A stretch of DNA of 64,000 nt from contig CAWJKH010000005.1 in assembly GCA_963843515.1 (NCBI GenBank), positions 60,874-124,873 of the forward strand, given 5' to 3'. A program made the translations under genes and the position numbers. Below the pieces are notes generated by a model that saw nothing but the letters and a program-made list of their open reading frames with translations, ran no database searches and was not told where the DNA came from. How positions within the stretch are numbered: the first letter of the stretch is position 1; every line of letters begins with the position of its first letter. This DNA comes from an uncultured Actinomycetota bacterium. Lineage in GTDB: Bacteria > Actinomycetota > Thermoleophilia > RBG-16-64-13. This document shows positions 55,312 to 64,000 of the stretch, piece by piece.

Positions 55312-55654
55312 CTAGCCGATGGCTACACCGTCGGTCTCACCGGTGCGGATGCGCACGCACTCCTCCAGGTCGAGCACGAAGATCTTGCCGTCGCCGATGT
55401 TGCCGGTGCGGGCGCCCTTGATGACGGCGTCGATGGTCGGCGGCCACGAACTCGTCGTTCACTGCGATCTCCAGCTTGACCTTGCGCAGCAGGCCGCCCG
55501 GCTCCACGTGGCTCCGGTAGACCTCGGCCACGCCCTTCTGCCGGCCGCGCCCCATGACGTCCGACACGGTCATCAGGTTGATCTCGGCCTCGGTCAGCGC
55601 TTCCACCACTTCGTCGAGGCGGTCGGGCTGGATTATGGCGATTATGTACTTCAC
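55312..55654 (-). CDS. glnK: P-II nitrogen regulator (copy 1), one frameshift near 55440
   Basis: [48 protein letters not shown]. Downstream of amt. Confidence 0.9.
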
Positions 55655-55680
55655 GTCTCCTCCTCAGTTCACACGCTCAG

Positions 55681-57234
55681 TTACAGGTGCGGCGACGCCG
55701 GGTAGGCCGGGACGCCCATCTCGGGGATATCGAGACCTATCATCTCTTCTTCGCGGGTCACCCGGATACCTTGGACCTTCTTCTGGATCCGGAAGAAGAC
55801 GTACATAAGCCGAAGGACCAGGCGACTACCACCACCGCGCGCTATGAGCCTGGGCGCCGAGCTGCCGCCAGCCGCCTCCGTAGAACAGGCCGCGCACGGT
55901 GCCGGCCACTCCGTTGAACCCGGCGCCGTAGCTGCCGTCGGCGAACAGACCCACCGCGATGATGCCCCACAGGCCGTTGAGCCCGTGCACCGAGACCGCG
56001 CCCACCGGGTCGTCCACCTTGAGGTACGCGCTCGACGAAGACGATGCCGCCGACCACCAGGACGCCGGCCACGATGCCGATGATGGCCGCGCCGATGGGC
56101 GTGACGAACGCACACGGCGCGGTGATGGCCACCAGGCCGGCCAGCATGCCGTTGGCAGTCATGGACGGGTCGGGCTTGCCCCAGATCTTCCACACCAGGA
56201 ACATGGCCGCCAGGCAGCCGGTCGCGCGAGGCGATGAAGGTGTTGACGATGACGACGGGGAAGCGCAGGTCGGTGGCGGCCAGGGTGGAGGCGCCGTTGA
56301 AGCCGATCCAGCCGAACACCAGGACGATGACGCCCAGGATGGCCATGGGGATGTTGTGCCCGAGGATGGCCCGCGCCTTTCCGTCCTTGCCGAACTTGCC
56401 TACACGCGGACCGAGGACGATCGCGCCGGCCAGAGCCGCGAAGCCGCCGACCGCGTGCACCACGCTCGGATCCGGCGAAGTCGACCACGCCGTGCCCGAG
56501 ACCGACGTTACGGCCGAGCGCCGAGAGCCAGCCGCCGCCCCACACCCAGTTGCCGTAGATGGGGTAGAGGATCGCCGAGATGAACACGCCGTAGACGGCG
56601 AAGGCCGAGAACTTCCACCGTTCGGCCATGGCGCCGGTGGGGATGGTGGCGGTGGTGTCCATGAAGACGAGTTGGAAGAAGAACATGGCGATGATGGCCA
56701 CGTCGTAGCTGTGGCCGCGAGAGGAAGAAGCCCTGCGTCCCGATGAGGCCCCACCGCCGGTCGAGGCCAGCCTCAAGGCCTGCGTGGCCCCCAGCGTGGC
56801 GAAGGTGCCCGCGCCGCCGAACTGGAAGGCGAAGCCGACGGCCCAGTAGGCCGATGCAGCCGATGGCGAAGATCACGAAGTTGGTCATGATCACGTGCAC
56901 GGCGTTCTTGGAGCGGGAGAAGCCGGTCTCGACCATGGCGAAGCCCACCTGCATGAAGAAGACCAGCGCGCCGCCGAAGATCAGGAAGAAGATGTTGAGC
57001 GAGATCTTGACGTGGCCGAGTTCGGCGGCGACTCACCGGCGGTGGGGCTGCCGGCCGTGGCGGCCAGACGTCGCTGACCGTGCCGGTCGACGCTCCGCTC
57101 GGGTCGTTGCCCAGGGCCAGTCCGGTGATCATCACCACGAGCAGCCCGGCGAGGGCGACGACGATGATCAGCCTCTTGGCCAGGGGCGACCAGGCCCAGG
57201 GGACGGGTTTCCACGTGGGTGGTGGATTCCACAT
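55681..57234 (-). CDS. amt: Ammonium transporter (copy 1, long N-terminus), multiple frameshifts
   Basis: [79 protein letters not shown] across several frames. Confidence 0.88.
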
Positions 57235-57330
57235 GGCTTCTCCTTTCTCGATCGCTGTTACTTGCCCCGGATGGTACGGGCCTGCCGGCCGGCGCACATC
57301 CGCCGCGCGGCGAGAATGTGGGGGCGGGAA

Positions 57331-57446
57331 GTTATACAAAAGGCGTAGACCGTCGGCGAAGCATCCGAAATACTCTGTTGCCTTGGTGGATTTGTTGAAA
57401 CACCACCGCAGGGGCCTTGTACCAATGGCCAAAACGGTGCTATCGT
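57331..57446. promoter_or_regulatory. Divergent amt1/pucR promoter region with a candidate PucR half-site
   Basis: Minus-strand TATAAC at 57336-57331. Plus-strand TGCTATCGT at 57438-57446. Minus-strand CCATTGGTACAA at 57428-57417 resembles the motif upstream of amt2, amt3 and mvhD. Confidence 0.5.
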
Positions 57447-57456
57447 ACGGGCTGCG

Positions 57457-62254: not shown

Positions 62255-62596
62255 ATGAAGTACATCATCGCCATCATCCAGCCCGACCGGCTGGATGAAG
62301 TCATCGCCGCTCTCGAAGAGGAAGAGATCCTTCTTCTCACGGTATCGGAGGTCATGGGCCGCGGCCGTCAGAAAGGGATGGCCGAGGTCTACCGAAGCCA
62401 TGTGGAGCGAGGCGGGCTGCTGCACAAGCTCAAGATCGAGCTGGCCGTAAGCAACAGCAACGTGTGGCAGGCTGTGGATGCCATTACCCGGGGGGCCCGC
62501 ACGGGGAACATCGGCGACGGGAAGATCTTCGTGCTCGAGATGGAAGAGTGTGTGCGCATCCGCACCGGCGAGACTGGAGTGTCGGCGCTGGCATAG
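62255..62596 (+). CDS. glnK: P-II nitrogen regulator (copy 3)
   Basis: Nearly identical protein to copy 2. Confidence 0.95.
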   Translation: MKYIIAIIQPDRLDEVIAALEEEEILLLTVSEVMGRGRQKGMAEVYRSHVERGGLLHKLKIELAVSNSNVWQAVDAITRGARTGNIGDGKIFVLEMEECVRIRTGETGVSALA

Positions 62597-62636
62597 CGCA
62601 GGCCCGGATGTGCGGCCGGATTTGCTCCTGGCTGCT

Positions 62637-62709
62637 CCAAACGTACAACGGTCGGGCTCGTCAACCTATCCCTTTGTCTAAACCTCGGACGGGCCGTTCC
62701 TGCTACTCT
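62637..62709 (+). promoter_or_regulatory. mvhD-metF promoter with the same candidate activator half-site
   Basis: CCAAACGTACAA starting 67 bp before an extended -10 TGC-TACTCT, the same offset as at amt2. Confidence 0.55.
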
Positions 62710-62794
62710 CTTTTGTCCTAGTACCAGACGCCGCCGGACCGACCGGCGGAGCGGAGGAACGGCCCGTGGAAGACAGAGAAGGACGTCGCCCCCG

Positions 62795-63388
62795 ATGACC
62801 TCTTCCCCCGTGCTCTGTGAGCTCGGTCAGAACGCCCTCGCCTCCCCGTACGTGACAGTCTTCATGTGTGCCAACTGCGCGCGGGCAAGCAAGACGGCGG
62901 AGACCGCGTACCGGTCTCGGCCCGACCTTCCCAGCTTCGACTGGCCCTTTCCAGTGCAAGAGGTGCTCCTGCCGTGCACCGGCAGGCTGCAGCCGGAGCA
63001 TGTCCTCAAGGCCTTCGAGACCGGCGCCCGCCTTGTCTGCGCGATCGCCTGCCGCGAAGACAACTGCCACTACCTGGAGGGGAGCACGCGCTGTGCCCGC
63101 CGGGTAGAGTACGTGCGTGGCATCCTCGACGAGGTGGGTCTGGGGGCCGAGCGCCTGCTGCTGTTGCATCTCCCGGGCAGCGCCGCCGAAGACACAGCCC
63201 TGAGTGCGGGGCGACCGATGCCCGCCTGTTCGCCCGAGACCGCAGAAGCTGAGGTCGTCGCCGTCCGCGAGGCGGTGCTGGCGGTCCTGGAGAGCCTCAC
63301 ACCCACCCCACTGGACAGCGATGCCACCGAAGCAGCCATGGACCCCTACCAACAAGTGGACACCAGCTATGACAACAATGAGGACTAG
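62795..63388 (+). CDS. mvhD: MvhD-like hydrogenase iron-sulfur (delta) subunit
   Basis: FMC, PCTGR, LKAFETGA, C...NCHY.EG, L.EVGL..ERL, plus an acidic C-terminal extension. Confidence 0.82.
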   Translation: MTSSPVLCELGQNALASPYVTVFMCANCARASKTAETAYRSRPDLPSFDWPFPVQEVLLPCTGRLQPEHVLKAFETGARLVCAIACREDNCHYLEGSTRCARRVEYVRGILDEVGLGAERLLLLHLPGSAAEDTALSAGRPMPACSPETAEAEVVAVREAVLAVLESLTPTPLDSDATEAAMDPYQQVDTSYDNNED

Positions 63389-64000
63389 TTTCGCTCAGAC
63401 CTTGGCTTCCGGTCGCCCGGTCGTGACGGCCGAGTGTGTCCCTCCGCACAGCGGCGACGCGCAGGCGGTCGGGAGGCTCTCGGCGGTCCTCCCGTCCGGT
63501 TTGGACGCGGTGGTGGTAGCCGACAACCCCGACGAGATACACGGGTCGGCTCTGGCCTGCGCTGCGCTTCTCGCGCGTGAAGGCCGGGAGACCGTCCTCT
63601 CGCTGGTGACCCGGGACCGCAACCGCATCGCCCTGGAGAGCGACGCTCTCGGCGCCTCGGCCCTGGGGGTCGGCGCCGTCCTCTGCCTTAGCGGCAACCA
63701 CCAGTCTCTGGGGGTCTGTCCTCAGGCTGCCAGCGCCAACGACATCGATTCCATCCAGTTGGAGCAGATCGTCAAAGGGCTTGGACTGCCCGAGATGGTC
63801 ATCGGCGCGGTCGCCCATCCTCAGCAGCGGCCGCTGGAGTTGAACCTGCTCCGCCTGAAGAAGAAGATCTCCGCCGGGGCAGCCTTCGTCCTCACACAGC
63901 CGGTCTTCGACGTCGAGGCCTTCACTCTGTGGATGGAGGCGGTCCGTACGGCCGGGTTGGACCAGAAGACGGCCATCATCGCAAGCGTGCTTCCGTTGAC
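63378..64000 (+). CDS. metF: Methylenetetrahydrofolate reductase-family protein, 3'-partial
   Basis: Hand translation MRTSFAQTLASGRPVVTAECVPP...ADNP...TRDRNRIALESD...LCLSGNH...KKKISAGAAFVLTQPVFD. Runs off the window. Confidence 0.85.
   Translation, partial: MRTSFAQTLASGRPVVTAECVPPHSGDAQAVGRLSAVLPSGLDAVVVADNPDEIHGSALACAALLAREGRETVLSLVTRDRNRIALESDALGASALGVGAVLCLSGNHQSLGVCPQAASANDIDSIQLEQIVKGLGLPEMVIGAVAHPQQRPLELNLLRLKKKISAGAAFVLTQPVFDVEAFTLWMEAVRTAGLDQKTAIIASVLPL

Follow-up and report, generated by a model that had tools for sequence, protein, structure and literature searches.

Which regulator governs ammonium uptake in the uncultured Actinomycetota of the class Thermoleophilia? We addressed this question in a stretch of DNA of 64,000 nucleotides (the window, G000:C5:60874-124873) that ends in a cluster of ammonium transporter (amt) and P-II (glnK) genes, a gene for a PucR-family regulator (pucR) and the start of an mvhD–metF operon. 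An earlier sequence-only reading had proposed that the PucR-family protein controls these genes through a promoter motif that they share. The assembly to which the window belongs (G000) comprises 1.76 Mb in 9 contigs, has a G+C content of 65% and is rated 70% complete; gene order was taken from a listing of open reading frames (ORFs) and from Pfam. We found that the motif is one arm of a conserved palindromic operator, which accompanies these genes and is found together with pucR. Judged from its sequence, the element is very probably a functional operator of a nitrogen regulon.

The word CCAMAYGTAYAR occurs on the + strand of the window at 59180, 60890 and 62637 (0 expected; 0 in 100 shuffles) and nowhere else in the nine contigs of G000. 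It starts 67, 68 and 67 nt before the -10 hexamers of amt2, amt3 and mvhD, respectively; exact pattern matching thus reproduced the coordinates and distances reported earlier. CCAMAYGTAYAR is the left arm of an imperfect palindrome of 40-41 bp, CCAAATGTACAA-N16/17-TTGTACATTTGG; in orthologous intergenic regions (C)GATAA comes next, and a TAnnnT box stands about 21 nt further downstream. The inverted partners described for amt2 and amt3 are in place (Table 1), and CGATAA-N21-TACAMT matched the window twice, at these two promoters (0 expected). The mvhD promoter also has a right arm, degenerate in the window (CTATCCCTTTGT at 62666-62677), which reads CTGGCC/TTGGCC-N4-GG followed by ATAA in 5/5 relatives of our first set. 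Beside the right arm of the amt2 operator, GGCGATAA is kept in relatives. In a scan of G000 with a palindrome matrix, amt2 scored 35.1 (the best site of the genome), amt3 26.6 and mvhD 26.5; the next best site scored 16.7, and the top scores in five shuffled G000 genomes were 17.9-20.5. Because the pattern was drawn post hoc from the three window sites, the shuffle test alone overstates its significance, and the claim is carried by the matrix test on relatives.

A related site had been placed at 57428-57417, in the interval between the divergent amt1 and pucR genes. The site is real; corrected, it is the right arm of a weaker operator (57388-57428) at the pucR promoter. The arm lies 12 nt from the -10 box TATCGT and is kept as cTTGTACCAATGGCCAAA in orthologous promoters. 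A further half-site in this interval faces amt1; in the amt1/pucR intervals of relatives it is kept as TTGTACAAAAG or TTATACAAAAG (read by eye, below the matrix threshold).

The relatives used for comparison are metagenome-assembled genomes (MAGs) of uncultured, Thermoleophilia/Gaiellales-like Actinomycetota from the window's own family (f1) and a second family (f6). An independent matrix was built from the window's six half-sites only and scored on relatives only, against 1473 background windows. Scores exceeded the 99th background percentile at 37/43 amt promoters, with 23 above the background maximum, and at 6/6 mvhD promoters. In five relatives of at least 90% completeness (G001, G004, G005, G008, G012) we looked for a strict pattern, MCANNNGKMYAR-N16/17-YTRKMCNNNNGG. 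It matched 11 times, every time in front of an amt2-type, amt3-type or mvhD gene, against one match for its reversed control. Ten are promoters of these types in the pucR cluster itself (the one at G005:C106, which we checked, lies between glnK2 and amt3). The remaining match is in G012, 71-111 nt ahead of an mvhD–metF pair about 1.02 Mb from pucR; this site scores 28.0. Kept at orthologous amt2-type, amt3-type and mvhD promoters, at the unlinked mvhD of G012 and in f6, the motif behaves as the sequence-only reading had proposed in being shared by amt–glnK and mvhD–metF, and it shows the conservation in relatives that was named there as a check. The unlinked pair of G012 (L077, G012:C6:1870532-1873572) is divergent from a gene for a two-domain rhodanese, with a shared interval of 230 nt. 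Since the palindrome lies inside this interval, it could serve both mvhD–metF and the rhodanese gene.

In f6 the PucR homologue is 41% identical to that of the window, and we searched with a core pattern, GTAYAR-N16/17-YTRTAC. G029 and G034 each had a single match, ~110-140 nt upstream of pucR (in G034, CAACATGTACAA-N16-TTGTACAATTGGATAAG); here glutamate-synthase-like genes come after pucR. The control pattern gave two matches per strand in both genomes, so it is the location that counts and not the number. G039, also of f6, had no core-pattern match. Downstream of pucR in G029 lie a ferredoxin-Glu_synthase gene and then a GXGXG-GltD-like gene. An amt-glnK-amt-glnK-glnA cluster of G029, 28 kb from pucR, carries a site in front of glnA that scores 21.8, and amt there has a weak one that scores 14.5. 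In pattern and matrix scans of genomes of the window's genus, no site turned up beyond the cluster, nor did the canonical gltB-gltD-glnA operon have one; as far as these scans reach, the regulon of this genus is local. A scan for glnA and glutamate synthase had been suggested earlier; it gave no site at the canonical operon in the genus and one before glnA in G029. Taken together, these data support reading the motif as a cis-element conserved in a small nitrogen regulon, and not as a residue of duplication. In G029 an IS200-like transposase gene (L101 7115-8089) lies just upstream of the pucR operator region, which has three GTACAA half-sites in a very A+T-rich stretch.

What binds the palindrome? 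The protein encoded by pucR matches the PucR domain PF07905 over residues 7-126 (E 2.7e-33, 115.2 bits against a cut-off of 33.5), the helix-turn-helix (HTH) domain PF13556 (7.6e-16, 58.1 bits against 27) and the GGDEF_2 domain PF17853 (8.5e-15, 55.5 bits against 24.5). By its N-terminal PucR domain and C-terminal HTH it is a member of the PucR/CdaR family. Matches in a PDB profile search were confined to the HTH region of Rv2242/MabR and 3onq. Orthology with AdeR, PmfR or CdaR was rejected on NCBIfam scores (58.6, 60.9 and 45.6 bits against cut-offs of 700, 800 and 612), which place the protein in a separate subfamily. It gave a single match as a query against G000. Orthologues of at least 52% identity were found in 22/24 f1 genomes; the two genomes that have none, G022 (96% complete) and G010 (98%), have no amt match and 0 pattern matches. 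In 26/28 loci with enough downstream sequence, the distance from pucR to the start of a downstream amt gene is below 600 nt. Pfam and the comparison with relatives revealed no second regulator gene conserved in the cluster, and the HTH recognition region of PucR is nearly invariant among relatives. From synteny, co-occurrence and site geometry, the adjacent PucR-family protein is probably the binder of the palindrome.

The geometry of the site resembles that of characterised PucR-type activators, which favours activation by a PucR oligomer. A gap of 26-27 nt separates the palindrome from the -10 hexamer at amt2, amt3 and mvhD, which puts the operator at about -80 to -40. The sequence-only reading had noted the absence of a canonical -35 element, and a scan of 57200-62850 for sigma-70-like -35/-10 pairs indeed returned none. 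GabR, the PucR-type activator of gabTDP in C. glutamicum, is an octamer that uses two 21-bp inverted repeats between -87 and -23; AdeR and PutR use 24- and 17-bp repeats (PMC7652997), and Paenibacillus AdeR requires a 47-bp site upstream of -35 (PMC12369066). Like GabR, the window protein is a PucR-family member from an actinobacterium, has a C-terminal HTH and is encoded beside its putative targets in a local, nitrogen-linked system with long inverted repeats, those of GabR covering ~60 bp (PMC7652997). Unlike GabR it has a GGDEF-like domain, and its site is one 40-bp palindrome with 12-nt arms instead of two 21-bp repeats; the GabR targets are genes of γ-aminobutyrate (GABA) catabolism, not amt–glnK or glutamate-synthase-like genes, and GabR binding was demonstrated by electrophoretic mobility shift assay (PMC7652997). 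The architecture of a PucR N-terminal domain, a GGDEF-like domain and HTH_30 is shared with AdeR, PutR and PucR of Bacillus and Paenibacillus, activators that have 17-47-bp sites upstream of -35 and serve single pathways, for alanine, proline and purines (PMC12369066, PMC7652997). None of the three is reported to control ammonium transporters or P-II proteins, and in Bacilli they are subordinate to TnrA/GlnR.

We propose that an oligomer of the adjacent PucR would bind the 40-41-bp palindrome just upstream of -35 and, according to nitrogen status, turn on the promoters of amt2–glnK2, amt3–glnK3 and mvhD–metF–(glutamate-synthase-like)–hdr. PucR would also regulate its own gene through the weaker copy over the pucR -35 region. 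This operator ends 12 nt before TATCGT and hence overlaps the -35 region, which suggests autoregulation. The ATG follows TATCGT by 10 nt, and this short distance suggests a leaderless or nearly leaderless mRNA. Candidate signals to PucR are 2-oxoglutarate, glutamine or GlnK; a predicted complex of a GlnK trimer with PucR scored 0.01 (mark 0.32), which weighs neither for nor against an interaction. We lean towards this account, a PucR oligomer activating this nitrogen regulon through the palindrome, as the best explanation of the data as a whole. That PucR acts as an activator is, on our analysis and taken by itself, about an even call.

Several observations weigh against this explanation. The relatives are kin, so the promoter counts are not independent and overstate the independence of the evidence. 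A first half-site matrix gave scores of at least 23 in 12/14 pucR-amt intervals (the exceptions being L027 and L029), at least 19 at 6/6 and at least 25 at 5/6 amt3-type promoters, and at least 22 at 5/5 mvhD promoters of the first relative set, with training loci and scored loci being the same. With the window-only matrix just 9/39 pucR promoters of relatives exceeded the 99th background percentile; the weaker conserved operator at the pucR promoter is compatible with the autoregulation suggested earlier. One MAG carries three pucR copies on three contigs (L047, L048, L061), 66-75% identical to that of the window, and two of these paralogues (75% identical) have neither a site scoring at least 15 nor an amt gene nearby. 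G017 and G021 carry PucR yet have no strict-pattern match; their sites score 25.3 and 14.8. Actinobacterial promoters commonly have just a TAnnnT -10 box, without a -35 consensus, so the lack of -35 elements is weak evidence for dependence on an activator. As G000 is 70% complete, members of the regulon may be unassembled. Lastly, pucR itself could be a mere member of the regulon of another factor.

The alternative that follows from this last point is that the palindrome is the operator of another nitrogen regulator, encoded elsewhere, with pucR being just one target of that regulator and PucR binding at other sites. Global nitrogen regulators commonly control the genes of further regulators, and pucR of B. 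subtilis is under TnrA control. Sites unlinked to pucR (mvhD in G012; glnA and amt 28 kb off in G029), the weakness of the sites at pucR's own promoter in the genus and the existence of pucR paralogues without sites fit such an arrangement. PucR-family genes also appear in the table of the M. smegmatis GlnR regulon (PMC3662644). Against this stand the lack of a second conserved regulator gene in the cluster, the joint loss of the PucR orthologue and amt in 2/2 genomes lacking either, and the strong site that always lies within ~150 nt of pucR in two families. Boxes for GlnR, TnrA/GlnR and AmtR had no promoter match even with one mismatch, the NrpR domain was found in 1/5 genomes and GlnD in 0/5. 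We therefore regard control by another regulator as rather unlikely.

In detail, the GlnR box GTnAC-N6-GnAAC had 18 matches in the window with at most one mismatch (31 expected), none of them in the intergenic intervals of 57235-62794. TGTNA-N7-TNACA, the consensus of the MerR-type TnrA/GlnR (also quoted in PMC12369066), occurred once in the window, at 32251, and not in the cluster. The AmtR core CTAT-N6-ATAG had three matches in the window with at most one mismatch (3.9 expected), none in a promoter. Among the five motif-keeping genomes the NrpR domain PF01995 was present in G001 only, where G001:C2:62611-63327 encodes a full-length NrpR regulatory domain (E 3.3e-78) that we otherwise found in archaeal controls; it could stem from horizontal transfer or be a binning contaminant.

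PucR might instead bind the site as a repressor or dual regulator that is released under nitrogen limitation. The pucR operator, which ends 12 nt before the -10 box and covers the -35 region, would suit a repressor, as would the glnA site of G029, just ~40-77 nt before the start codon. At amt2, amt3 and mvhD, however, the site leaves the core promoter free, a typical activator position, and 57200-62850 holds no sigma-70-like -35/-10 pair; moreover, all other characterised PucR-type regulators are activators according to PMC7652997. We consider repression by PucR to be unlikely.

The position of the palindrome 8 nt after the glnK2 stop codon and 41 nt after that of glnK3 could also suggest that it forms a hairpin in RNA or DNA, serving co-transcribed genes as a terminator, processing site or attenuator between them, and is not a protein operator, and in a few loci (L025, L030, L032) the arms reach 9 complementary bases. 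Over 39 distinct sites, however, arm complementarity is what the column composition predicts, with a slight excess at the three innermost pairs only; this indicates that there are no compensatory changes and that the palindrome behaves as a protein-binding site. No T-run follows it and no terminator was predicted in the intergenic regions; an Rfam search gave no family match and, at E up to 1, a chance snoRNA hit only. The same element is also found upstream of operon-first genes and in divergent intervals, and a hairpin is thus very unlikely. That amt2 and amt3 merely retain a leftover of tandem duplication, with a chance match at mvhD, is scarcely credible: these pairs are tandem paralogues with proteins 74% and 91% identical, but their promoters are alike at the arms, CGATAA and the -10 box alone and differ in the spacers, the element persists in several genera and a second family whose intergenic flanks have diverged, and the mvhD promoters of relatives keep it in 6/6 cases.

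Table 1. Genes and candidate regulatory sites of the nitrogen cluster (positions in the window)
Feature	Position	Strand	Remarks
glnK1 (P-II), frameshifted	55314..55654	-	Pfam P-II match covers profile positions 1-68 only
amt1, divergent ammonium transporter, pseudogene here	55681..57234	-	~35% identical to amt2/amt3
Half-site facing amt1	57332..57343	-	CCTTTTGTATAA on the - strand; right arm weak
Weak pucR-promoter operator	57388..57428	+	GGATTTGTTGAA-N17-TTGTACCAATGG
Putative pucR -10 box	57441..57446	+	TATCGT; GGTATCGT/GATATCGT block conserved in relatives
pucR, PucR-family regulator, 550 aa	57457..59109	+	PucR + GGDEF_2 + HTH_30 (Pfam)
amt2 operator	59180..59219	+	CCACATGTACAA-N16-TTGTACATCCGG; inverted partner 59208-59219
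CGATAA box, 21-nt spacer and putative -10 box	59220..59252	+	TACAAT (59247-59252)
amt2, ammonium transporter	59281..60519	+	Pfam Ammonium_transp 6.2e-128; TIGR00836 463.9, cut-off 343.3
glnK2, P-II	60541..60882	+	Pfam P-II 4.5e-23
amt3 operator	60890..60930	+	CCAAATGTATAG-N17-TACTACGTTTGG; inverted partner 60919-60930
CGATAA box, 21-nt spacer and putative -10 box	60931..60963	+	TACACT (60958-60963)
amt3, ammonium transporter	60999..62231	+	74% identical to amt2
glnK3, P-II	62255..62596	+	91% identical to glnK2
mvhD operator	62637..62677	+	CCAAACGTACAA-N17-CTATCCCTTTGT; right arm degenerate
Putative mvhD-operon -10 box	62704..62709	+	TACTCT; CTGCTACYCT kept in relatives
mvhD-like iron-sulfur protein (FlpD), first gene of operon	62795..63388	+	Pfam FlpD 5.4e-22
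metF-like methylene-tetrahydrofolate (THF) reductase	63378..64000, past window end	+	

Of the three amt–glnK pairs described earlier, amt2–glnK2 and amt3–glnK3 are intact and amt1–glnK1 is not. With tblastn, amt1 fell into 5 pieces in different frames; its nucleotide identity to the intact copy of G004 is 84.8%. In glnK1 there is a 1-nt insertion near 55445 relative to G004/G003, its remainder reading in another frame. Compared with the intact pair of G004/G003, amt1–glnK1 of G000 shows 13 indel events in 1.83 kb, of which 11 break the frame; none lies in a homopolymer and one is a 17-nt insertion. The genes over the next ~20 kb, unlike amt1–glnK1, read through. In relatives, amt1 is missing from G001 and G008 and intact in G002-G005. 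Most likely amt1–glnK1 is a decaying gene pair, reflecting ongoing loss of a divergent third transporter within the genus. Since gltB of G000 is also split, locally poor assembly may apply to these breaks.

The P-II proteins of the window, encoded beside amt, score 82-83 bits with PF00543 (cut-off 25) and are thus members of the P-II family; at 99.5 against an NCBIfam equivalog cut-off of 202 they form a divergent subfamily. In 21 sequences compared, the loop-region residue Y46 does not vary. The pucR–amt cluster holds every P-II gene found in G000, G001, G004 and G012, with no separate glnB; G008 has one extra P-II gene on another contig. A search that picks up the GlnD domain PF08335 in E. 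coli, Caulobacter and C. glutamicum detected none in five genomes. Immediately adjacent to the nitrogen cluster, a gene for a BcrAD_BadFG/DUF2229 CoA-enzyme activase (52112-54097, - strand) adjoins a 338-aa ORF (54064-55080) without a Pfam match. A search of sequencing runs for the window sequence listed no RNA run and three soil DNA runs from one study (shares 0.05-0.11).

The third target operon was read beyond the window with Pfam and NCBIfam on L084 (G000:C5:123001-141000, to ~15 kb past the window end). Downstream of metF it encodes a 478-aa protein with a partial Glu_synthase match, a ferredoxin (Fer4) + Glu_synthase FMN-domain protein, a ~900-aa protein with GATase and GXGXG domains, HdrC-like and HdrB-like proteins and a ~1500-aa fusion of HdrA-like and GltD-like parts; after a gap of 500 nt a MetV-like protein follows. 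This gene order is kept in G001 and G004. The operon thus carries all three catalytic domains of the glutamate-synthase large subunit, which assigns it to nitrogen assimilation and explains why it would belong to a nitrogen regulon. The sequence-only reading had taken mvhD–metF for a redox/C1 module; it does share the operator, but continues into these glutamate-synthase-domain genes. MetFV-HdrABC-MvhD is the methylene-THF reductase complex of acetogens. The operon has mvhD, metF, hdrC-, hdrB-, hdrA- and metV-like genes in common with it and differs in three inserted glutamate-synthase-domain genes, in the fusion of HdrA to a GltD-like module and in its nitrogen-type operator. Its domains suggest a glutamate synthase incorporated into a module of the MetFV-HdrABC-MvhD type. 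No such Hdr/MvhD/MetF-linked glutamate synthase turned up among the titles listed by one literature search.

A further 17-25 kb away, the other strand carries the canonical gltB-gltD-glnA operon. Upstream of the Bmp-ABC-gltB-gltD-glnA genes and of serA we found neither a site nor a GTAYA/TRTAC core, with the single exception of one isolated half-site-like word inside the gltB start region. This gltB (G000:C5:144319-149098; L090 3319-8098, - strand) is split into two overlapping frames, one with GATase_2 and half of the central domain and the other with the rest plus Glu_synthase and GXGXG, through a frameshift or an assembly error in G000.

In Actinomycetota the same role, control of amtB-glnK(-glnD) and of assimilation, is filled by GlnR (OmpR-type) and AmtR (TetR-type). 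The present system differs from these in protein family, in its operator, as the GlnR and AmtR consensuses have no match at these promoters, and in the absence of glnD (0/5 genomes). A literature search of full texts, supplements aside, returned no PucR-family regulator of amt–glnK and nothing on nitrogen regulation in Thermoleophilia; in the papers found, PucR-family genes are solely GlnR/TnrA targets or encode regulators of pathways for GABA, alanine, purine, proline and isopropylphenol. As the putative regulon of a PucR-type regulator, the system is new, well-defined and testable. A broader possibility, which we put forward tentatively and with some doubt, is that in Thermoleophilia/Gaiellales-like Actinomycetota a PucR-family protein, and not GlnR or AmtR, may be the nitrogen regulator, and that through one 40-bp operator it may switch on amt, all P-II genes and an undescribed MvhD-HdrABC-MetFV glutamate-synthase-like enzyme, with glnA included in the sister family.

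Textbooks treat the control of amt–glnK as a marker of nitrogen sensing in a lineage, and the known solutions, NtrC, GlnR, AmtR, TnrA, NtcA and NrpR, each come from another family. Abundant uncultured soil actinobacteria appear to use yet another regulator family, without GlnD and with the P-II genes inside the regulated cluster. The prediction is sharp and cheaply testable, as it concerns one protein and one 40-bp site. The operator would also mark the unusual Hdr/MvhD/MetF-linked glutamate-synthase-like operon as a nitrogen-controlled enzyme, which offers a handle on its function. If the broader possibility above holds, ammonium assimilation would be coupled to flavin-based electron bifurcation and folate C1 metabolism in these organisms.

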